42,973 bases of DNA from Candidatus Parabeggiatoa communis (GCA_035871815.2 JAYQWI020000688.1:1-42973); one strand, 5' to 3'. Positions 1 to 34,291 are shown, counted from the stretch's first letter. Translations and numbers: made by a program. Notes: generated by a model from the letters alone, not told the origin.

Positions 1-833
1 CCAGCCGTTTGCCATTGCCGTAAACAGTCTGCCAAGTCCGCTTTAAGCCCGTAACTGGATTGGTAACGATCTTCGGCGTTTTTCGCCATCAATTTCAGCA
101 CGATTTCTGAAATCGCTTGAGGCAGTTCTGATTTTAATGAATGCGGTGGTACGGGTGGTTTGGCAATATGACAATGCACTACTTCCAGCGCATCTGGCAT
201 CGAAAAGGGTAATTGACCGGTCAGTAATTGATAGAAGGTGACACCAAGGGAATAAAAATCGGTTCGGTAATCTATGGCCCGATTCATGCGGCCCGTTTGT
301 TCTGGGGAAAGATAGGCTAATGTGCCTTCTAACAAGTTCGGATTGCTAAAGGTTGTATTTTCGCGAGACAACACCGTTGAAATGCCAAAGTCAATCAGTT
401 TCAGTTGCTTGGTGGTGGTATTGAGGATAATGTTTGACGGATTGATATCCTTATGAATCAGATAGCGTTGATGCAGTTGGCCTAAAATATCTGTCACAGA
501 AATAGCCAACGTCAAAAAGTCAGTCAACGGCATTTGCCCCGCCAATTTTAAGCGATCAACAGAAGTCGCCCCAAAATATTCTAGGACAATGAAAAAGCGA
601 TTTTGGTCGCTTTCTAGGCCGTAGACGGCCACCACACCTTTAATATCGTTCAAGTTGTGGGTGGTTTCGTATTCCCGTTTAAACCAAGCGATTTTTTCCG
701 GGGGCGGATAGTCTTGTTTCAGAATTTTAAGAACAACTGCTTGATTATCGGTGAGCCGATGTGCGCGATAAATAGACGAATTAGCACTTTCATGCAATTG
801 TTCGGTTATTTGGTAACCAGAAAGAGTTAACAT
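1..833 (-). CDS. Ser/Thr protein kinase N-terminal domain of a probable kinase-AAA ATPase multisensor protein; truncated by the window start and absent from the ORF track
   Basis: Manual translation from ATG at 833: MLTLSGYQITEQLHESANSSIYRA...VVLKIL...LIHKDINPSNI...KLIDFGIS...EGTLAYLSPEQTGRMNRAIDYRTDFYSLGVTFY...KLMAKNAEDRYQS. HKDINPSN and SPEQTGRMNR are typical of cyanobacterial-type kinase/AAA/His-kinase hybrids. Confidence 0.9.
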   Translation of the reverse strand, partial: MLTLSGYQITEQLHESANSSIYRAHRLTDNQAVVLKILKQDYPPPEKIAWFKREYETTHNLNDIKGVVAVYGLESDQNRFFIVLEYFGATSVDRLKLAGQMPLTDFLTLAISVTDILGQLHQRYLIHKDINPSNIILNTTTKQLKLIDFGISTVLSRENTTFSNPNLLEGTLAYLSPEQTGRMNRAIDYRTDFYSLGVTFYQLLTGQLPFSMPDALEVVHCHIAKPPVPPHSLKSELPQAISEIVLKLMAKNAEDRYQSSYGLKADLADCLRQWQTA

Positions 834-1263
834 ATATTGTCTTAACCTATTTTTTCATGAGTCCATTTGAGTTTGCTGTTTTGATTGACTGTGCTTAAAT
901 GTTTTATAAATCCAGGTCAAGTTCAAAAAATAGGATTTCAGCACTTCTACTGCAAACGGTTATAATTTAAACTTTTTACACACCCACTACCCCCTATTCA
1001 ATCCTTATACATAAGTTTTTAACTAATTGATTTTATATATATTAGCATTTTATAAACAGCTACTGTGCGAATAGTAAAATCATTCTCGAAAAAGTATCCC
1101 TGATACTTGTGTATAACGATGATATATCGAGATGAGAATAAAACCGCAACACGTCTCATCCCCTGCCTCGGGGGATGAGCATGTGTGTTTTTAGTTCCGT
1201 TTTCAACCGTGCAAAGTATCTCCGATGTTTTCCCCGATAGAAACCCAAAAAAACTATCAACAT

Positions 1264-2346
1264 TCAGCTCAATCCATAAAAACGGATAGGATTGTCCCAA
1301 AGAATCTTTTGGACCGTCTTTTTGGAAAGCCTATCCTCTAGCTTGACCGCTTCGTTTATGATCTGCTGATCATGGTCTATGTGAGGATAGTCAGAACCTA
1401 AGATTAAGTTATCGGTACCAACATAATTGATGATTTCAGGAAGATAAGGTTCCGCAGGTTCAATGCCAATAAAACATTGACGACGAAAATAGTCAGAGGG
1501 TTTCATCTTCACGTTTTCTTTGACTTCCCAACCCAGTTCTTGATATTCCCTATCTAACCGCCACAACCAGTATGGTAGCCACCCACACCCCGCTTCAAGA
1601 AAGGCCACCCGAAGTTTGGGGTGACGTTCTAGCACACCTCCTTCAATCAAGGCTAACATCGCCATCATTTGTTCCATCGGGTGAGAACACGCATGCATCC
1701 CAAACCGGGTATTGAAGCGATCCGCACCAGTCGTGGGTAAACGCCCATGCGTCGCTTCATGAATACCAATGGCAATTCCCAGCCGCTCGCATTCGTTCCA
1801 AAATGGCTCATAAGCCGGATCACTGAGCAAGCGTCCTTTGAGTGGGTTGGGACGCATAAAGACGGCTTTCCAACCCCATTCTGTTATCCGATGCAATTCC
1901 GGCACCATGTCATTGGGATCGTGAAGATTAATGGCACCAACACCTCTCAAAACTTGTGTGTCATAGCTACAAAAGTCTCGCAACCAATTGTTGTAGGCGC
2001 GGGTTAGGGCCCCGGCTAGTTGTGTGTCCATACCGTCTATGGCTAACACAAATAGACCATCTGTGGGATAAAGAAACGCAATATCAACGCCCAGTTTCTT
2101 GATTGCAGTGACTTGAGAATCCGCGTTAAAACCTCTCATGGCCGCCATCAGGTGATGTCGCTTAATTTTTTCAACACCTTGGGCTTGAACTTGATCGGAT
2201 AATTTGTTCGTCATTTTTTCGCCGTTAATAGTTTGATCTATGGAAGGCGCACGATCCTTAAACGCTGGATCAACATATTTTTTCCACATATCAAAAGGTT
2301 CTAATACATGGCAATCGGCATCTATTATTTGGTAGTTATTCAACAT
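1264..2346 (-). CDS. Amidohydrolase family protein (Amidohydro_2 / LigW-ACMSD-like TIM barrel)
   Basis: IIDADCHVLEP metal motif, GIHE, HPKLRVAFLEAGCGW, GSDYPH, ILWDNPIRFY. Confidence 0.9.
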   Translation of the reverse strand: MLNNYQIIDADCHVLEPFDMWKKYVDPAFKDRAPSIDQTINGEKMTNKLSDQVQAQGVEKIKRHHLMAAMRGFNADSQVTAIKKLGVDIAFLYPTDGLFVLAIDGMDTQLAGALTRAYNNWLRDFCSYDTQVLRGVGAINLHDPNDMVPELHRITEWGWKAVFMRPNPLKGRLLSDPAYEPFWNECERLGIAIGIHEATHGRLPTTGADRFNTRFGMHACSHPMEQMMAMLALIEGGVLERHPKLRVAFLEAGCGWLPYWLWRLDREYQELGWEVKENVKMKPSDYFRRQCFIGIEPAEPYLPEIINYVGTDNLILGSDYPHIDHDQQIINEAVKLEDRLSKKTVQKILWDNPIRFYGLS

Positions 2347-2660
2347 AGTTTGTTATTTAAGTTTGGGAGCCGAGAATCCAAATGTGGGTACTCTCGCCAA
2401 AATAGATTGTTCGCTTTTGGGTGTTCGTTTTAGTATGTATCTCGATGGGTAGTGGTGGAAAAGGTCAATTATCCTGAACACCTTAATAGCCTTTTGTCAT
2501 TTAACTCAAAGACTGAGCTTTTGATCAGGGCGATAAATCTCCCATCACTTGTTAAGATTCCTGTTTGACATGACAAAAGCAATACAAGGTGTAAAGTCTA
2601 TCCACCGAATTGGCGAAAGTAAAACAATGCTCACTACTGTAGATTACCCAAAAATGTTAA

Positions 2661-2694
2661 AGAAATCCGAGTTTTTGAAAAAAATCGGATTTCT
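2661..2694. repeat. Palindromic intergenic repeat AGAAATCCGA-TTTTT-GAAAAAAATCGGATTTCT
   Basis: Near-perfect inverted repeat; degenerate copies at about 5652-5685 and about 37262-37282. Confidence 0.6.
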
Positions 2695-3131
2695 AAAAAA
2701 TAATACCTTCATCAAAAGTTGAATATTAAACGGGGTTATTCTGAAAAATGCTTGAAATTCAATGAAATTAAAAATCAGTTCGACTGGGTTCAAAAATACG
2801 ATAAGTTTTTGAAATTGAAGCAATATCACATAATAACTATTTTATTTTTATAACAATTGGCGAAGGTATTACAGAAAATAAACTTGGTTTTTATGCAATG
2901 AGGGCACCAAAAAAGGCGATAAATCGTTTACTACAAACACTTGGTGATTGCCAAGAAATGACTTGTTTTTGTGAAAGTCCAAAGCTTAGTTCCGTTGCAC
3001 TTTTAACTCAGCTAAACCCAAGTTATTTTTTGACAAAAGCACCACTTCAATTCAATGCCATTTTCATAGCGAGATATCTTTTCATTACCTTGATAAACAA
3101 GGCTGAATACTGAGTTTGGACGGATAAATAA

Positions 3132-3204
3132 TAGAGTTGTCCGAAAATAAGGGGTTTATGAATTGTGTTTTTATTAGCCAAAAATTTATTGACGGACAAG
3201 TCTA
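3132..3204. mobile_element. MITE-like element, TAGA(G/C)TTGT...ACAA(G/C)TCTA terminal-repeat family
   Basis: Ends TAGAGTTGTCCG and CGGACAAGTCTA; no ORF. Confidence 0.55.
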
Positions 3205-3291
3205 ATTAATTATTTTATTTTTATCAATTTGACCTGAAATTGAATCAGTGCCTTGACAGGTACTTAATGGCATAGAGTTTTTGGAGGGTTG

Positions 3292-5514
3292 TTAAAAAAC
3301 CGGCATCGGATTGAGTTGCTTTTCTGTCAAAGGCACTGATAACCAACCCAATTTGACCGGTACGTCATACAGTCGTCCCGGCCCTAATCTTCTCCAAAAG
3401 TGACGCATGCCAGGGATAATCACTTTAACCACATTCAGTCCGATATCGGGCCGCGTCTGATCCAAAACAAGAACTTCTAACCCTTGTTTTTTAGCGATTG
3501 CCACACAGTTCATCACATCGTCTCGCAGATCATCACTCCACAATTGGGGATAATCTGAACTGACTTTAGGAGCCTGATTATCATCAGCGACTAAATAAGG
3601 CTGATTTTCCAGTGTTGCCGTTTCCCATTGTTCTTGCGTTATTTTATCATAAACTTCAAGCATTTGGTTGAGTTCAGTTAGGGCCCGAAGAATACCTATT
3701 TTCGGATCGAAATGGGCACCAAAGGCACAGAGAATCTTTTCATTGCTTTGATCAATTCTCCTAGAAATCGCCACAAAAGCAGGAATATTCAGATCGCTGG
3801 TAATATCCAATACCCATAATTCACGTTGGCGCATTTGATAGTATTCCTGCAAGGCTTGAAAATAGGGTTCATCAAAACGGTCTAAATGGACTCTTGGTTT
3901 TTTCACGTCATTAAACCACCATAGAGCTACACTATCACGTTCCACCAGTTCCATAAATCCTTGTAAAATAGCCTCTTCTTTGCTATTACCGGCCGCTGCA
4001 CCATTGGAATCTGCCCAACAATCCGGTTTTTCCGGTCTGGGATAGCCATAATAACAGTAGGCTGTTGGTAAATATTTAAATACGTTATGAGTTAAAGACC
4101 ACACGGGTGTCCACTCAATTTCTCTTTCTTCATCAAACGGTTCTGGCACTTTTTCAAAATAATTATCGGTATTAGCATTCCAGTGATGACGGTTTTGATA
4201 TTGGGCTTGACTAAAATTCATACAGGCATTGGGATGAATTGCACGTCCTCCCCAATCTCGATAACGGCCTTTTTGTCGAATTTCATCGCCTTGAAAAACC
4301 CCAGAATATCTTTCAATCGCTTCGCAAATAGCGCTGGCTTTGGCTTGACTATCCGTTTTGCCTTTGCCAGCACTTCTACCCCGCACATTTTCGCGTAAAA
4401 AGTATAAATCATCAAACATAGTCGCAAAATTATGACCAGCAACATAAGTATGGGTCAAATGATAGTGATGCGAAATGGGATTAAGTTCTCGGATAACGCC
4501 CGTAATCGGGCTAATATGAGAACTGTATTTATTGATCGTTTCTTCAGGACGCATACAACGGTGCCCACCATCTGCGATGAATATTTTGGGTTGAGTTTCT
4601 AGTACAATGGGTTTAGGTGATTGCTTATGCTTATTAGTGAGTGTTCCGCAACTGGGGCATTGTGGTCGATGAACCAAAAAGTGATTTTGTGTTTTCAGCG
4701 ATAACGTATCCAGCGTGACTAAAATGCCTTCTAAATTTTTATTTTCACCTTGAATAATCCATTTAAGGAGTTCAGTGGAGGTTAAATTCAGAGCCATTTG
4801 TAGCGTAGAAGGCAGGAGAGTCAGAGAGGTTGGAAAAGGGGTTGAAGTCTTTTTGCGTGTTTGGATAAAGGTTTCAATCGGGCGGTTAGCGCGTAGACGC
4901 TGTGCAAGACATTCCCAACAACCGGTTTTGCCTTTATGAAAAAGGGGGCCAATCCAAACGAGGGTACCGACCGGTTTAACTAACAGCCAAGGGGTTTGCG
5001 ATTGTAATGCTTTTTGGTTAAAAGCGACTAAATTGTTTTGGAGATAATCATCCGTCAAAACAATATCAATGTCTCCTTCCGTGTCTCCTTCCGTTTGGAC
5101 TTGAATTTGTAACGATTCCAACGCCGAAATCAAAGGCTCAGCATTGACAGCCCCTATAGTATGAACAACCACTTGAGTTGTTTGTAATCGGTGGATGGCT
5201 TCTTTGAATTCAACATTTAAAATATCGCAGAATGCGGCCAGATTATTATTAGGTGAGAATTGATCGTCATTTTCAATAATATAGCCTTTTTTTTCCAACA
5301 ACATTAACGCATAGTAAATTTCTGCAACCTGTGCTTGCTGTTGCATCAATTGAATAATGTCGTTAACGGTATGTTGACCATCGAGTAATGGGACTAATTT
5401 CTGGTAAATATGGCCTTTGAGTAAAAAATACTGATTTTCGGAGAGTAAAAATACGCCTTCTGGTTCACAAGTCTCGACATGGAAATGACGTTTAAACTTA
5501 GGCTTCTTGAACAT
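3292..5514 (-). CDS. TOMM fused RRE / C-protein / YcaO cyclodehydratase (TIGR03882-like)
   Basis: N-terminal RRE-like region (LLDGQHT), E1-like domain with GP..TGCWECL and RPQCPSCG, YcaO motifs SAGKG, EAIERYS, SNGAAAG..EEAILQGFMELVERD, and a Pro-rich C-terminus NPMPVF. Confidence 0.93.
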   Translation of the reverse strand: MFKKPKFKRHFHVETCEPEGVFLLSENQYFLLKGHIYQKLVPLLDGQHTVNDIIQLMQQQAQVAEIYYALMLLEKKGYIIENDDQFSPNNNLAAFCDILNVEFKEAIHRLQTTQVVVHTIGAVNAEPLISALESLQIQVQTEGDTEGDIDIVLTDDYLQNNLVAFNQKALQSQTPWLLVKPVGTLVWIGPLFHKGKTGCWECLAQRLRANRPIETFIQTRKKTSTPFPTSLTLLPSTLQMALNLTSTELLKWIIQGENKNLEGILVTLDTLSLKTQNHFLVHRPQCPSCGTLTNKHKQSPKPIVLETQPKIFIADGGHRCMRPEETINKYSSHISPITGVIRELNPISHHYHLTHTYVAGHNFATMFDDLYFLRENVRGRSAGKGKTDSQAKASAICEAIERYSGVFQGDEIRQKGRYRDWGGRAIHPNACMNFSQAQYQNRHHWNANTDNYFEKVPEPFDEEREIEWTPVWSLTHNVFKYLPTAYCYYGYPRPEKPDCWADSNGAAAGNSKEEAILQGFMELVERDSVALWWFNDVKKPRVHLDRFDEPYFQALQEYYQMRQRELWVLDITSDLNIPAFVAISRRIDQSNEKILCAFGAHFDPKIGILRALTELNQMLEVYDKITQEQWETATLENQPYLVADDNQAPKVSSDYPQLWSDDLRDDVMNCVAIAKKQGLEVLVLDQTRPDIGLNVVKVIIPGMRHFWRRLGPGRLYDVPVKLGWLSVPLTEKQLNPMPVF

Positions 5515-5608
5515 TTATAAATCAGGGCTGTAAAATAGTAAAAGGGCGTATTTCTATTTTCCCGCTATTAAAACGTCAATACCTAAAAAATGGGCTAGGG
5601 GAAAGGGG

Positions 5609-5719
5609 CTAGTGCAGGATGGCGGAAGTTCCCATACCAGCCATCTAAAAAAGAAATTCGATTTTTTGAAAAAATAGAATTATCGAACCGGCATGGTTAT
5701 TTCTGCCCTCCTGTACTAG
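5609..5719. mobile_element. MITE-like element with CTAG ends
   Basis: Inverted ends CTAGTGCAGGATGGCGGAA and TTCTGCCCTCCTGTACTAG; contains a nested copy of the 2661 palindrome. Confidence 0.6.
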
Positions 5720-5968
5720 GAAAAAGGGATTGGTTCAAGGTGAAAAGTATAAATGTCTTTAGTTTAATGAGTTAATGTCACTTAAGGCGCTTTAAAATGG
5801 CTTTTTTATTTAATAAAGTGATTGAAAAATAAACTATTTATAGTTTTTTACGGTCCGATGGAAGTATGAACAGAACCCATTTACCCTTGCTCCTCAACCA
5901 AATAACCTTTCCCCTTTGGGGAAAGTATGACCGGGAAAATAGCAATGCACCCTAGTAAAGGGTAATTG

Positions 5969-6024
5969 GTGCTTTAGCAAAGGGGAATCGGTAAAGCCGT
6001 CTTTTTATCCCTTTGGTAAAGCAC
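5969..6024. terminator. Long stem-loop 3' of the precursor gene (attenuator, mRNA stabiliser or REP-like)
   Basis: GTGCTTTAGCAAAGGG pairs with CCCTTTGGTAAAGCAC, about 50 nt past the precursor stop. Confidence 0.45.
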
Positions 6025-6073
6025 GAGACAGTAATAAGCTTGTATCTCGACTAATTATAGGAACGGAAAGACA

Positions 6074-6418
6074 CTAACAACAACTTGCTTTAAAGCGACG
6101 AGATAATTCCCCACTGTCTTCTTTTGCCCATTGTTTTAATTCTTCAGCAGTCACATCAGCAGGTTTTGGAGGCACTGGTATAACAGTTACCGCTTCCAGC
6201 GGGTTATCCGGGGCCTGTACTATCCGCCAAGAAAAAGTTGTCGCATCGATCTCGACTCTTTCCCCTTTTGCAAAAACAACTTCGCCGTTGGTAAACTCAG
6301 TGATGGTCGTTTTCGGTTCCTTCTTCAGTTTCTCTGCAAAGTCTGGTTCCAACCATGCTTGAGCGATCACTCGATGCAACTCACTACTCATTTTTTGCCA
6401 ATTTTCATGTAGTGGCAT
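6074..6418 (-). CDS. Putative RiPP precursor with nitrile-hydratase-like leader (NHLP / BMA_0021-like), C-terminus ...FKASCC
   Basis: RVIAQAWLEPDFAEKLKKEPK matches the NHLP pattern (iiakAW.DpeFk..L..dP); IPVPPKP and VTAEEL motifs; GGAG RBS upstream; co-oriented directly upstream of the YcaO gene. Confidence 0.8.
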   Translation of the reverse strand: MPLHENWQKMSSELHRVIAQAWLEPDFAEKLKKEPKTTITEFTNGEVVFAKGERVEIDATTFSWRIVQAPDNPLEAVTVIPVPPKPADVTAEELKQWAKEDSGELSRRFKASCC

Positions 6419-6465
6419 AATTATACTCCAGTGTTGTAGTTAATGGTTAAATGAACAAAAGTTAT

Positions 6466-6606
6466 TAGAGTTTATACCGATTTAACGTAACTCATTGATT
6501 TATATCAAATTATCATTTTCAGAAAACTAATAAAATCAATTCGCGCCAAAAGTTTTACGCGCAAAACTTTTGGCGCGAAACTTAAATTAAATCAGTATAA
6601 TGTCTA
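6466..6606. mobile_element. MITE-like element with an internal perfect 17-bp hairpin (6540-6579)
   Basis: Ends TAGAGTTTATACCGATTTAA and TTAAATCAGTATAATGTCTA; core TTCGCGCCAAAAGTTTT-acgcgc-AAAACTTTTGGCGCGAA. Confidence 0.55.
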
Positions 6607-7645
6607 TTAATATCAGTAAAACTCAAAATGGGTATGAACAGTGACTGTTCAATATTTCAGGCAAAATTTTTGCCGCGAACCGAAGGGAAGCTACGCTAAA
6701 TCCGTTCAGAATTTGATAGGTTTTCTGGCCTTGGACAACTTGGGTAACATGGGCAACTTAGACTGGGCATGGCACGATTTTCAAAGCCGCCTTCAGAAAA
6801 ATTTGTGCATAAACCTCCGAGATTTGGCAAACCTCGGAATGTGAATCTCAATCTAAAAAATGAAAAATGAACAACAATTTTTCAATCTGTTATATAGTTT
6901 TATAACTTTTTGATTTTACATCATTCAATTCAACCCTTAATTCGCATTTATACCGCATTTATACTTCTGCTAAGAATTGCGCTTTTGTTCGAGTTTTGCA
7001 AAACATCGCGATACAAAACCACAAAATTTATGCTCTTTATTCCAACAAATACTTAATTTATGATGGTGTTGAGTATAATGAGATTAATTGATGTAAATCC
7101 CTCTTGCGATTAGAGGCAAGCACTGTATCATCTTGCCACAAGACAGTCAATACACCACAGAGCCTTTTTTCGGAGCCTGGCGTTTATCTACTTAAAAATT
7201 AACAGAAAAATTTTTATGACTATGGAAATAAAGATAGCCTCCTGATTGACGAACAAAAATAGAAAATACTCTTTAATATCAAGTACTTAATTAAAAAAGC
7301 CTCAATTTATAACTCATTGATTTTAAAAATATTTCAAGTGATATGTCAATCCGCGAACCCTCCCCAAATGCGCCGTATTAAGAAACCCCGTTTTTCCAAA
7401 TAACAAAACTTTTTTCTATCTGATTGAACAACTTGGACAAAGCGATACTTAGCACCAAAAAAAATTACGTTTTTATCATTTCAAGCCCAGCTAGAAATGA
7501 CAAAATGCGGCGTTTATGACGGTGTTCAGGATAATAAGATTTTGATGTAAGCAGGTGTCAGGAGTTCAGATGTTCAGGATTTCATAATTATTCTTTTAAA
7601 AATCCTTTTTTATAATCAAATCAAACAAACCAAACGGAGAGCTTA

Positions 7646-9112
7646 ATGGAATTGACTGATGAACAATGGGCTATTATTAATGCGCCTGAACACATTTTGA
7701 AAGTGAATGCTGTTGCGGGTAGTGGTAAAACAACAACGTTATTGGAATATGCCAAACGTAGGCCGAAACAACGGTTTTTGTATTTGACGTTCAATAAATC
7801 GGCTTCCGATGAAATGAAGAAAAAGTGTTTTGTTGCAAACCTTGACAATATCACTGTCCAAACTTTTCATGCTTTAGCCTATTACCATGCCAATGGCAGG
7901 CATTATGATCTGATTAATGACTTGAGTGAATGGACTATTTTTGATGGTTACGTCAAAGGAGAACTAGAAGATAAAAGAGACAATCTGTTGCTCATTTCAT
8001 GGCTTATAAAAGATATGATGGTTTTTTACCTTAATTCTTCTCTGTTCTATATAGATGAAGCGCTTCTTGCGTCTTATCGGAATGAAACTCGGCCGCAAAA
8101 TAAAGTGGACATGCTGTTATCTTGTTATGCTGATTTCATTCTGAAAACGATTAAAACTATTTTGACAAAAATGAAGCAATGCGAAATACCGGCCATTCAT
8201 GACTTTTATCTGAAAATGTTTCATTTATCAAAGCCTACCTTGTTTTACGATATTATCTTGATTGACGAAGCGCAAGACTTGTCGGGCGTTATGCTAGAGG
8301 TGCTTAAAATACAAGAGGCTTCAAGGATTTTTGTGGGCGATACCTTTCAGCAAATTTACGCTTTCCGATATGCTATCAATGCTTTAGATAAAATAGATTG
8401 CCTTGAATATTCATTGACGCAGACTTTTCGTTTTGATGACGCTTTGGCGCAACAAATCTCGAAAATTGTTAATCGTGGATACAGTATCTTGAATGATAGG
8501 GCGCATTTCCTAAAAATAAAAGGAAAGCAGGAGAGGATTGAGTGTTTGGAAGGCGAGAGAGAACAAATTGCGGTTATTTCAAGAAGTGTTTTGAAACTGT
8601 TTAAAGAAATCGCACATTATTTAGGGGGTGATCTCAAATTTTACTTTGAAGGGGGATATGAGAGTTATGGCTTTATGAACGCTCGCGTTTTGAGTGTTTT
8701 ATATTTGTATCAGGAGAGTTTTGATAAGATCAGTGATCAATTTATCAGGCGATTCAGTCGTTTTAGGGCCTTAAGGGATTTTGCTAAGGCCTCACAAAAT
8801 CGTCAGCTATTAAACACTTGTGATCTTGTTCAGACATACAGAGAAGATTTGTTTGATATCAATCAGAAAATCAAGCGACGCATTGTGTCTAAGGAAGAAG
8901 CAGATGTGATTTTTACAACAACCCACAAAGCGAAGGGGCAAGAATATCAAAATGTTCAGATGGTTAAAGAAGATTTCATCACTCGCGAACAACTGGAAAA
9001 TGCGGTTAAAAAACCGGATGAATATCATTTTGAGAAGCTTAGAGAAGAAATCAATATTTTTTACGTTGCTGCAACGAGAGCGATGGATAATATAAGCTTA
9101 CACAAATTTTGA
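7646..9112 (+). CDS. Compact UvrD/Rep-like superfamily 1 helicase
   Basis: AGSGKTT, TFH, DEAQD, GD..QQIYAFR, TFRF, TTHKAKGQEY, YVAATRA; GGAG RBS. Confidence 0.9.
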   Translation: MELTDEQWAIINAPEHILKVNAVAGSGKTTTLLEYAKRRPKQRFLYLTFNKSASDEMKKKCFVANLDNITVQTFHALAYYHANGRHYDLINDLSEWTIFDGYVKGELEDKRDNLLLISWLIKDMMVFYLNSSLFYIDEALLASYRNETRPQNKVDMLLSCYADFILKTIKTILTKMKQCEIPAIHDFYLKMFHLSKPTLFYDIILIDEAQDLSGVMLEVLKIQEASRIFVGDTFQQIYAFRYAINALDKIDCLEYSLTQTFRFDDALAQQISKIVNRGYSILNDRAHFLKIKGKQERIECLEGEREQIAVISRSVLKLFKEIAHYLGGDLKFYFEGGYESYGFMNARVLSVLYLYQESFDKISDQFIRRFSRFRALRDFAKASQNRQLLNTCDLVQTYREDLFDINQKIKRRIVSKEEADVIFTTTHKAKGQEYQNVQMVKEDFITREQLENAVKKPDEYHFEKLREEINIFYVAATRAMDNISLHKF

Positions 9113-33016: not shown

Positions 33017-34291
33017 TTATTCAGCTAGTTTTTGGGTGAGAATAGCAAATTCTTGTTTCATTTGCAGATTTTCAAATACTAGCAACTCTGGTACTTGAAT
33101 ATTGAGCAACGCATCAAAAAATTTTTGGCTGGTACGTAATAAGTTAATTAACTCTCCACTGACTCTGACTGTTTTGTAAGTGTTTTGTGCTATTTGTAAA
33201 TCACTGGCCGTTTTGTCTCTTGCGATAATTATCTTGCGACGTTGCTTAATTAAATGCTGTTTGTACAACATGGCAGTCTTGAAAGTCAAATTTTGGGCTT
33301 CAAGGTTAGCCAACAAATGTTGACGGCGATTTCCATCCAGATTGCCACGCAAAAAATTTTGGGTGGTGGCAGTCAGATCTTGAACATTCGCAGTAATCTG
33401 ATCTATTTTAGGCAAATATTTTTCATCAATATTGTTGATGAATGTGTGTTGCATATATCGTAACGTTTTTAATAATACCGTGTACATCCCATAGTAACGT
33501 TGGCTAGTTTCTATATCTTCGCCACTCTTGACAGTCAAATCCATCAGTTGTTGGCTAATTTGTTTAACATTATCGTAGACAATACTGCTTTGAATAATAT
33601 CGTCTCCTACAACACTTGATAATAGCACGTCTAGCTGTTCTTGTGTTATAGATAAGCCTTTGTTAGAGAGTTCTTGGGCAAACTGAGTTTTAAGTTGAGC
33701 AATTATTGTATTACTTTGCTTAATAAGCTTTGTCAGTTGTTGAATTTTTTCTTCATAATCCGCTACAGTCATTTTCCAGGTTGATCGGATAGGGGCACTG
33801 ACTTGATCTTGGCGATATTGAGAAATCTTTTGTTTCATTTCCCTAATTTCTTGTTCAAGGGCATGTATACGTTCTCTCGTATGGGCAGTGTGAGAAATAC
33901 TTAGAATTGTTACAGCCTCATCAAGCAAGTTATTGATTTCACTTTTATTTTCTTGTTGATCTCGACCAAACCAAGTAGACTCAGGTAGTGTTTCCTGTTC
34001 TTTTTCAAGGAGTAACACCTTATTAAGTGTTGGAGTGACTTTGTTCCAAACTTGTGCAAATAGAGCATCTTTTTCTTCAGGAAATACCGTTTCAGTTGAC
34101 TGTTTAATTAAACTTTCAACAGTTTCCGTGGAGTCATCCCACATATTCACTATCGCTTGTTTTGTTTTTTCCCACCAAGAGGTTTGGTTTTCGTTGGTGT
34201 TTTCAACGGCATTGGCACAGTTCACCATCATAAGCAACAGCAAAATGGCTAATGGCATTTTTAAAGGGTATGTACTCATATTAATATCCAC
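33017..34291 (-). CDS. Hypothetical exported coiled-coil protein
   Basis: 424-aa ORF with a signal-peptide-like N-terminus (KMPLAILLLLMMVNCANA-VE) and Q/L/E/K-rich heptads; the start may be the ATG at 34279. Confidence 0.8.
   Translation of the reverse strand: MDINMSTYPLKMPLAILLLLMMVNCANAVENTNENQTSWWEKTKQAIVNMWDDSTETVESLIKQSTETVFPEEKDALFAQVWNKVTPTLNKVLLLEKEQETLPESTWFGRDQQENKSEINNLLDEAVTILSISHTAHTRERIHALEQEIREMKQKISQYRQDQVSAPIRSTWKMTVADYEEKIQQLTKLIKQSNTIIAQLKTQFAQELSNKGLSITQEQLDVLLSSVVGDDIIQSSIVYDNVKQISQQLMDLTVKSGEDIETSQRYYGMYTVLLKTLRYMQHTFINNIDEKYLPKIDQITANVQDLTATTQNFLRGNLDGNRRQHLLANLEAQNLTFKTAMLYKQHLIKQRRKIIIARDKTASDLQIAQNTYKTVRVSGELINLLRTSQKFFDALLNIQVPELLVFENLQMKQEFAILTQKLAE

Follow-up and report, generated by a model that had tools for sequence, protein, structure and literature searches.

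A possible pathway to an azole cap at the end of a ribosomally made scaffold protein in Candidatus Parabeggiatoa communis

A locus of Candidatus Parabeggiatoa communis (GCA_035871815.2 JAYQWI020000688.1:1-42973) raises the question of what a YcaO cyclodehydratase and an amidohydrolase-fold enzyme might do to a small scaffold protein ending in Ser-Cys-Cys, and what a large sensor kinase might have to do with the outcome. The window, that is the whole stretch of DNA analysed (42,973 nt), is an entire contig. As the original prediction had it, ORF calls revealed four co-oriented minus-strand genes in the order precursor, YcaO, amidohydrolase-fold gene and kinase, with the following features:

6074..6418, minus strand: nitrile-hydratase-leader-like scaffold, 114 aa, ending ...ASCC (ORF, profiles, AlphaFold2, fold matches)
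6077..6085, minus strand: Ser112-Cys113-Cys114, predicted modification site (sequence; tail bias in related scaffolds)
3292..5514, minus strand: fused RRE/E1-like/YcaO cyclodehydratase, 740 aa, relative of MusD, LynD and TruD (profiles, structure relatives)
1264..2346, minus strand: predicted BarH/LynB7-like amidohydrolase-related dinuclear oxygenase, 360 aa (PF04909, ligands, clusters)
1..833, minus strand: N-terminal Ser/Thr kinase domain of a large STAND-type sensor, 277 aa, no stop (PF00069, L001 orthologue)

The kinase gene runs off the contig end, and the intergenic gaps are wide (559, 945 and 430 bp), so that the four genes may not share a single transcript. The arrangement is not due to chance, since locus L001 has the identical four-gene order with 91-96% protein identity. 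The remaining large ORFs of the window, outside the profile scan, presumably lie in the rpoBC-ribosomal protein-tuf block. A cyanobacterial contig contaminating the assembly was considered and rejected on two grounds: tuf, nusG, rplL and tRNAs are found on this contig, and the locus is seen again within the genus. Promoter and terminator counts were in line with those in shuffles (22 vs. 18.6 and 7 vs. 5.8). Contigs from RNA libraries of two studies span the whole scaffold gene, ending near 6485-6505, with level and strand not readable; YcaO was partly spanned in one sample and the oxygenase and kinase genes were unspanned, and these contigs were not counted as evidence of expression.

Regarding the scaffold, the precursor had been described as an NHLP protein with a minimal C-terminal core. 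The minimal core and the NHLP-like character held, while scoring placed the protein under every NHLP cut-off (13.4 vs. 50.9 bits for TIGR03793; 13.9 vs. 41 bits for TIGR03795). NHLP kinship is supported by profile, atlas and fold evidence, including an atlas top match to the NHLP-Burk family (TIGR03795; 0.89), taken as a lead only, and weak fold matches with nitrile hydratase alpha and a proteusin precursor. Foldseek gave no match at E 0.001 or better, a word-based search with the scaffold alone found no relatives, profiles being required, and an atlas search with a long scaffold of 363 aa found nothing. The AlphaFold2 model has a mean pLDDT of 83, with residues 104-114 below 50, and the protein features a helix ending at W22, a PxxP (P83-P86), V89-x4-L94, W97, no Gly-Gly and a flexible tail. 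Related scaffolds have conserved bodies, with lengths between about 70 and 397 aa; one scaffold is present in the window, and tandem copies are found in other loci.

The 740-aa protein combines RRE, E1-like and YcaO domains in one chain, with an N-terminal winged helix (PF21084) and a Pro-rich end. Scores above the cut-offs for TIGR03882 (174.7 bits; cut-off 36.9) and TIGR03604 (274.9; cut-off 219.25), together with PF02624 at E 5e-104, support the fused azoline-forming YcaO originally proposed. Its best solved relatives are the cyanobactin enzymes MusD, LynD and TruD, matched over the full length (E ~1e-222 to 1e-229), and relatives of this group form azolines. On FastTree, midpoint-rooted trees, which for this and the other proteins carry no clade test and from which no direction of transfer is claimed, window-type YcaO proteins and cyanobactin heterocyclases are on separate branches. 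Unlike the cyanobactin systems, the locus has a long scaffold predicted to be folded, and lacks PatA/PatG, a PatE-type precursor, repeated cores and an AYD follower. When related heterocyclases were assayed leader-free, an AYD follower at the C-terminus was used, so cyclisation of the last residue is a prediction only.

The C-terminal Cys-Cys had been expected to be conserved, which was not the case, CC ending 15 of 77 short representatives. What is conserved is a cyclisable last residue: 64 of 73 related scaffolds end in C, S or T, compared with 14% of 678 other long ORFs, and in one subfamily (L091, L092, L097, L112) the last residue is the sole cyclisable one among the final five. Oxygenase-linked scaffolds (n=46) end in Cys (19), in Ser/Thr (21) or in Leu, Phe or His (6), and a strict rule that an oxygenase implies a terminal Cys was rejected, as only 19/46 fit. 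The Ser/Thr ends would call for decarboxylation of an oxazoline. The last six stop one or two residues past a cyclisable residue and would need trimming or another substrate. A related subfamily (P0194-P0240) has internal Cys and mostly hydrophobic ends. In the window, Cys114 carries a free carboxylate.

Regarding the amidohydrolase-fold protein, membership in PF04909, an earlier suggested check, was recovered at E 9e-34. Its candidate metal ligands (D11, H13, H196, E251, D319, H322, D324) correspond in near-identical numbering to all seven of LynB7 (D11, H13, H197, E252, D320, H323, D325; PMC10127204), a likeness drawn from published positions rather than whole-sequence alignment, and are conserved in 178-184 of 184 aligned homologues. 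The ARO motifs DxH (D11-C-H13) and DxPHxD (D319-Y-P-H322-I-D324) are both present, and the available text of PMC13154177 describes them as absent from characterised PF04909 hydrolases and decarboxylases. These motifs and ligands, a length of about 360 aa and a thiazoline-synthase neighbour are shared with BarH, LynB7, DolJ and E0U9F9. The best solved relative is the diiron oxygenase PtmU3 (E 2e-38, vs. 6e-12 for ACMSD), which has Glu where the window enzyme and BarH, LynB7 and E0U9F9 have Asp. Relatives of 68-71% identity sit in clusters named 'BarH protein', these being cluster names and not assayed sequences, and Gloeothece E0ULZ8, not the assayed protein, is 61% identical. The window enzyme is likely a BarH/LynB7-like diiron oxidative decarboxylase, neither a peptidase nor a plain decarboxylase, as judged from its sequence. 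The original prediction had instead favoured release of the heterocyclic tail by a PurAH-like peptidase, or its decarboxylation by an ACMSD-like non-redox decarboxylase. PF04909 does include hydrolases and decarboxylases, and the six scaffolds with one or two extra residues would suit a thiazoline-specific peptidase; given both oxygenase motifs, the PtmU3 top match and the fact that LynB7 is only 14% identical to PurAH (PMC10127204), this is very improbable, and a MusD-type YcaO offers another route to trimming, MusD being able to cleave terminal residues according to the available text. The predicted mass shift accordingly changes from -44 Da to the -46 Da of oxidative decarboxylation.

LynB7/BarH diiron oxygenases turn a terminal thiazoline-carboxylate into a thiazole by oxidative decarboxylation (-46 Da), and LynB7 requires the free 4-carboxylate, the amide not being a substrate (PMC10127204), which fits a last residue as substrate. 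Activity of LynB7 and E0U9F9 was shown only on small 2-substituted thiazolines (PMC10127204, PMC13154177), and BarH, LynB7 and DolJ are described in the available texts as acting on small molecules, finishing NRPS products (PMC10127204, PMC13154177), whereas the candidate substrate here is a ribosomal protein tail; no NRPS-linked BarH locus was found when nine fetched loci were screened with two motifs. For the E0U9F9 clade, the available text of PMC13154177 places about 69% of members beside a thiazoline synthase, shows activity for one member, names no natural substrate and lists only cyanobacteria and myxococcota, while the window host is a gammaproteobacterium. We regard the scaffold tail as the probable substrate of the oxygenase. 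The oxygenase and a flavin amino-acid oxidase occur together in 0/75 loci; the oxidase is found where the diiron enzyme is absent and may provide an independent route to a similar cap.

In the reading that we prefer, tentatively and at just short of an even chance when taken as a whole, ring closure by YcaO and capping by the diiron oxygenase yield a protein that is kept in the cell and may serve the kinase. The fused YcaO would likely bind the 114-residue scaffold, predicted to be folded, and cyclise Cys114 (likely), Cys113 (probably) and Ser112 (perhaps) to azolines, upon which the BarH-like diiron enzyme would use oxygen to strip the terminal carboxylate, leaving a thiazole at the protein end. 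As no dehydrogenase is present in the locus, the inner ring would not pass beyond the thiazoline stage without a ThcOx paralogue acting in trans. The capped protein would likely stay whole in the cell, where the adjacent STAND-type kinase may have it as its ligand or partner.

The window holds the first 277 aa of this kinase (PF00069, E 1e-34) and stops after the kinase domain; the STAND-type (HstK-like) architecture is read from the L001 orthologue (93% identical, 2140 aa), in which AAA_16 NTPase, TPR-like, GAF, His kinase, receiver and SpoIIE phosphatase domains follow. No near-identical continuation of the cut gene was found in the assembly. The proposed linkage of kinase and locus recurs in a sample of 401 cyanobacterial genomes, where a STAND-type Ser/Thr kinase is near 26 of 27 oxygenase places (24 of 25 carrier genomes) and at 28 of 32 YcaO places in scaffold clades, compared with 0/16 outside. 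In L148, oxygenase, scaffolds and kinase are found together with no YcaO within the fetched 20 kb. Linked kinases are interspersed with unlinked ones in several lineages (7 changes on the tree), and on this sequence evidence kinases of several lineages were recruited beside oxygenase loci. Residues or regions that set YcaO-linked kinases apart, or that are more conserved in them than in unlinked ones, were not clearly found, the unlinked set being dominated by one clade. The kinase could nevertheless have just a general regulatory role, or be carried along in a mobile region rich in signalling genes, and never meet the product of an otherwise real pathway: the family is large (2-17 full copies in five genomes, at least 21 in this one), orientation relative to YcaO varies between loci, the gene gaps are wide, and three loci with long flanks (L029, L034, L065) have no STAND kinase, two of them adjoining another sensor kinase type. 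This is improbable, however, as the copy counts from the five genomes give a chance of only ~1-7% for such a kinase in a 20-kb stretch, against 24/25 oxygenase-carrying genomes, and the association turns up again with other kinase lineages and, in Burkholderia, with another kinase fusion. That the kinase reads the tail is a plausible but doubtful proposal.

As to whether the tail leaves the scaffold, the original prediction had allowed for either a tiny released heterocycle or a modified protein ligand; the latter fits better, while release would need a protease that is absent from the locus. Profiles confirmed that the 16 window ORFs scanned include no flavin dehydrogenase, exporter or protease, and no dehydrogenase or protease remnants were found in the gaps. 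Elsewhere in the genome there are genes for two ThcOx-type dehydrogenases, two subtilases and one RiPP radical SAM enzyme, such as occur in paralogous loci. A protease located there, or optional in the locus, might follow the same chemistry by freeing a thiazole-ended peptide, a metabolite, metal ligand or autoinducer, with the kinase sensing the product or regulating its synthesis. In favour of release, sister loci within the genus have, beside the oxygenase, a subtilase whose triad looks intact (L109, L111 and own contig C1315; weak S8 matches, signal-like N-termini); moreover, in L002 and L003, where Arg precedes the last three tail residues, scaffold and YcaO are separated by a trypsin-like gene, and a caspase-like gene is present in L037. 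Related loci also show traits typical of RiPPs, namely tails that vary, scaffolds in tandem and additional tailoring genes (radical SAM methylase, GNAT, methyltransferases). The window tail is predicted to be flexible, and the known oxygenases work on small molecules. We nonetheless consider release rather unlikely, as a scan of 73 of the 117 neighbour clusters showed such proteases in just 5/75 loci, drawn from three unrelated families and with start segments that by eye resemble export signals, and TldD/E accepts only unfolded peptides. Gly-Gly is absent from the window tail and found in the last 30 residues of 12/73 scaffolds, no conserved exporter was seen across related loci, and no NHLP-type transporter exceeded the cut-off in this genome; the missing Gly-Gly site and exporter favour an intracellular capped protein. 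On balance, we lean slightly towards a tail that is not cut off.

Among known systems, the NHLP-Burk TOMM loci, described from genomes in 2010, are closest in layout, with TIGR03795 precursors, a TIGR03882/TIGR03604 cyclodehydratase and a TIGR03903 kinase/cyclase (available text of PMC2887384). The suggested kinship with these Burkholderia loci was upheld: common to both are an NHLP-derived precursor with PxxP, no standard leader cleavage region, a C-terminal Cys or Cys-Cys without Gly-Gly, a fused cyclodehydratase, a large Ser/Thr kinase neighbour, no NHLP transporter and the lack of a described product. In contrast, the window has a single precursor, far below TIGR03795, instead of a tandem or fused pair, the hosts differ, and the L001 kinase orthologue is far below TIGR03903 (156 vs. 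706 bits), having GAF/His-kinase/phosphatase outputs and no cyclase domain. An amidohydrolase is unmentioned for NHLP-Burk in the available text of PMC2887384. With canonical NHLP precursors and proteusins such as MprE/MprC, the scaffold shares a helical N-terminal bundle, a conserved Trp and an L(x)4L-like motif, which in MprE/MprC engage the YcaO RRE (PMC12455567). Canonical NHLP RiPPs (TIGR03793), however, have a Gly-Gly site, a long hypervariable core and a peptidase-containing exporter, all three missing from the locus. Bottromycin likewise gains a C-terminal thiazole by oxidative decarboxylation, but via a P450 plus a true amidohydrolase (PurAH), and pearlins are built at a scaffold end, as predicted here, but their loci encode their own carboxypeptidase. 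To our knowledge, neither bottromycin nor pearlin loci are tied to a STAND kinase.

A literature search did not find the joined pathway of NHLP-like scaffold, YcaO, oxygenase and kinase, nor, as previously stated, a characterised product for this architecture; the parts are in print from 2010 and 2026. The individual parts are thus already known and the joined pathway is predicted; this copy is a minimal gammaproteobacterial version of it, and is new here. The pathway joins two open ends, the NHLP-Burk-like loci of 2010 without a product and the active BarH-like clade of 2026 without a natural substrate. With one scaffold, two enzymes and no dehydrogenase, the window copy is a compact test case, and the predicted mass shifts (-36 or -54 Da, then -46 Da) are exact and cheaply testable. 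If true, enzymes could be used to make proteins that end in a decarboxylated azole. Should the kinase also read the cap, a ligand would be at hand for the STAND-type kinases, which form a large family of orphan receptors with many copies in filamentous bacteria. It is an unlikely but conceivable extension that RiPP machinery is used here for signalling and not secretion, an irreversible C-terminal azole cap switching a STAND-type kinase in filamentous bacteria, in which case the cap might let the C-terminus sense oxygen or iron.

The four genes expected to be co-oriented in the order precursor, YcaO, amidohydrolase and kinase were confirmed, all as ORFs on the minus strand of the window, which is a complete contig from an 8.6 Mb assembly of 41% GC:

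6074-6418, minus strand, scaffold, 114 aa
3292-5514, minus strand, YcaO, 740 aa
1264-2346, minus strand, oxygenase, 360 aa
3-833, minus strand, kinase, 277 aa up to the contig edge, open-ended

The 740-aa protein scores above TIGR03882, TIGR03604 and PF02624 and the 360-aa protein matches PF04909 as its sole family, while the 114-aa protein, which had been taken for an NHLP precursor, is under every NHLP cut-off. The closest named locus (L001, Candidatus Parabeggiatoa sp. nov. 3) has an identical gene order with 91-96% identity to the window, and its 2140-aa kinase contains Pkinase, AAA_16 NTPase, TPR-like, GAF, His kinase, receiver and SpoIIE domains, an architecture labelled here 'STAND' or 'HstK-like'. 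The kinase domain at 3-833 of the window has the catalytic loop HKDINPSN and lacks a glycine-rich loop; this N-for-K form is found in many unlinked kinases as well as in the majority of the linked ones that do not belong to the Microcoleus branch. The window also holds an element at 6460-6612, just upstream of the scaffold gene, with 60 matches on 44 contigs of its own genome and a near-perfect 40-nt palindrome (6540-6579) inside it, a second repeat (3123-3210; 18 matches), a UvrD-like helicase gene (7646-9112; 37% GC, below neighbouring genes) separating the cassette from the end of rpoC, and a 424-aa ORF adjoining dnaX (33017-34291) that had no Pfam match at E 1e-5.

The earlier interpretation of the cluster was partly supported, and the 360-aa enzyme is reassigned from a PurAH-like or ACMSD-like amidohydrolase to a probable BarH/LynB7-like oxygenase. 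Among solved structures the diiron oxygenase PtmU3 is the closest to this enzyme, and clusters named 'BarH protein' include homologues that share 68-71% identity with it. According to the accessible parts of PMC10127204, LynB7 uses Fe(II) and O2 to turn 2-substituted thiazoline-4-carboxylates into thiazoles, acts only when the carboxylate is free, and shares 14% identity with PurAH; set against its published ligands (D11, H13, H197, E252, D320, H323 and D325), the window oxygenase has D11, H13, H196, E251, D319, H322 and D324. The available text of PMC13154177 gives the motifs DxH and DxPHx[D/E] as marks of these oxygenases, reports that E0U9F9 is active, and describes a dominant BarH-like clade without known product in which about 69% have a thiazoline synthase neighbour. 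The main text contains neither 'YcaO' nor 'RiPP', and the text of the supplement none of 'YcaO', 'precursor' and 'kinase'; the gene-map images of figure S15 may show more.

For the scaffold, an AlphaFold2 model built from a 72-row alignment has a confident body (mean pLDDT 83) of three helices, three strands and a further helix, followed by a low-confidence tail from residue 104 on. Foldseek searches with this model gave nothing significant, the top rows being nitrile hydratase alpha chains and a proteusin precursor. Residues W22, P83 and P86 are invariant across both scaffold alignments. In MprE/MprC an L(x)4L motif and helix 1 engage the YcaO RRE (PMC12455567, in part); V89-x4-L94 of the window scaffold is similar to this motif, and no Gly-Gly follows it. 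Iterated profiles over the fetched loci gave three more scaffold forms: a cyanobacterial form of about 110 aa, one of 130-397 aa ending in a PYIP-like motif and a few residues, and one ending in R-x-C/S/T, upstream of which four loci (L091, L092, L097 and L112) have a divergent DyP-type peroxidase-like gene.

With 15 loci set aside as duplicates and 4 sequences as fragments or read-throughs, the last residue was C/S/T in 64 of 73 scaffolds, many of them close kin (Cys 31, Ser 19, Thr 14), compared with 14% of 678 other long ORFs. Since C/S/T ends also occurred in 49 of 77 short representatives from a 50%-cluster library and CC ends in only 15, the predicted conserved C-terminal CC was not borne out, and the common trait, as judged from these sequences, is a cyclisable last residue. 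One related subfamily has internal Cys and mostly hydrophobic ends.

In 401 cyanobacterial genomes, YcaO matches were found at no fewer than 48 places in 42 genomes, a lower bound because scoring was limited to two candidates per genome; stretches of up to 20 kb were fetched around 46 of them, the other two being already in the locus set. In a FastTree phylogeny of 87 YcaO rows (ten duplicate loci omitted), 32 places fell in scaffold-bearing clades of 66 and 5 rows and 16 outside, and a STAND kinase lay within the fetched stretch at 28/32 of the former versus 0/16 of the latter. The four exceptions comprise two at a contig edge, one with a different sensor kinase, and L153, where oxygenase, scaffold and kinase are on a separate contig from YcaO. 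An oxygenase-based search of the same genomes gave 27 places in 25 genomes, with a kinase nearby at 26 places (24 genomes). Five genomes had 2-17 full kinases each, and therefore the chance of a kinase in such a stretch is about 1-7%. Linked copies require 7 label changes in a 91-row kinase tree: the pathway has been paired with several kinase lineages. Locus L148 (6601-18732) has an oxygenase, two scaffolds, a second oxygenase and a STAND kinase (2280-aa frame) and no YcaO in 20 kb, the YcaO genes of that genome being on other contigs. In L029 (14481-18494) and L065, whose scaffolds end in Leu or Phe, ThcOx is present without the oxygenase, and the place of the STAND kinase is taken by a propeller-PAS-HisKA_2 sensor.

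Among 75 non-duplicate loci, found partly via the oxygenase and thus biased towards it, the oxygenase is present in 48, a ThcOx dehydrogenase in 29, and a flavin amino-acid-oxidase-like gene in 14, never together with the oxygenase. This gene (L008 13735-15372 and 13 other loci; best NCBIfam match VioA, under cut-off) is possibly a functional substitute for the diiron enzyme; the exclusion amounts to about two events, because the flavin-gene loci make only two branches. An AAA_35 NTPase gene, fused once to a CHAT domain, often flanks long-scaffold loci (L025, L042, L046, L060, L062, L072, L079, L087, L088). Further optional tailoring genes encode a leucine carboxyl methyltransferase and a SPASM radical SAM protein (L072 13228-16895), an O-methyltransferase (L069 12251-13294), and TfuA with a second YcaO (L101 11054-14662).

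The window's own genome has three further YcaO genes, oxygenase paralogues followed by ThcOx genes, a subtilase gene that precedes one of the oxygenases, a homologue of RiPP radical SAM methylases, and C39-ABC transporters, none above the NHLP exporter cut-off. Its contig C733 (331-2344) has a second, multi-substrate locus, in which the 3' end of an oxygenase is directly followed by three short scaffolds of NHLP-like type with the tails CVC, CAC and CAC. In a larger Parabeggiatoa-type locus (L109 637-14000; L111 1973-11764; own contigs C1315, C865 and C1098), one or two YcaO genes are accompanied by a TIGR03975 radical SAM methylase and by a subtilase whose N-terminus resembles a signal sequence. 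The oxygenase was detected in 4/40 relatives, three of the four in the genus and one in another genus of the family, and in none of the 16 other families among them. Parabeggiatoa-like YcaO rows form one branch, as do the oxygenase rows, in mostly cyanobacterial surroundings, which fits exchange with cyanobacteria in either direction.

In Burkholderia, paired NHLP precursors with a final Cys or Cys-Cys are encoded next to a fused cyclodehydratase and a large Ser/Thr kinase, and no transporter is present (PMC2887384, in part), and an NHLP-Burk-like precursor is among the up-regulated entries in the available part of PMC12322963. PatA/G proteases are absent from NHLP loci according to PMC4603692, in whose accessible text neither 'amidohydrolase' nor 'kinase' occurs. 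The window system works like NHLP-Burk and is not classed as a member, because it is under the TIGR03795 and TIGR03903 cut-offs and has a single precursor, whereas NHLP-Burk precursors are paired. Full-text searches, mostly of non-subscription papers, gave no product and no description of an oxygenase-scaffold-kinase link.

From family knowledge, YcaO (best solved relatives MusD, LynD and TruD) would cyclise the scaffold tail, and the oxygenase, by analogy with LynB7 and E0U9F9, would convert a terminal thiazoline-carboxylate to a thiazole (-46.005 Da). Against this pathway, only 19/46 oxygenase-linked scaffolds end in Cys and 6/46 have a non-cyclisable end, and MicD needs an AYD follower in leader-free assays (PMC9052802, in part). 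MusD uses ATP to hydrolyse off terminal residues (PMC10885120, in part); similar trimming could explain the six non-cyclisable ends, but could also affect the window scaffold tail, which counts against the pathway. Proteases also occur in five loci, two in the window's genus (73/117 neighbour clusters scanned), although they look exported. In the proposed pathway, the capped scaffold would remain whole and may act on the kinase, given the kinase linkage, the fact that neither a protease nor an exporter is conserved, and the scaffold size; a stronger reading, in which the cap itself is the signal that switches the kinase, is tentative and rather unlikely.
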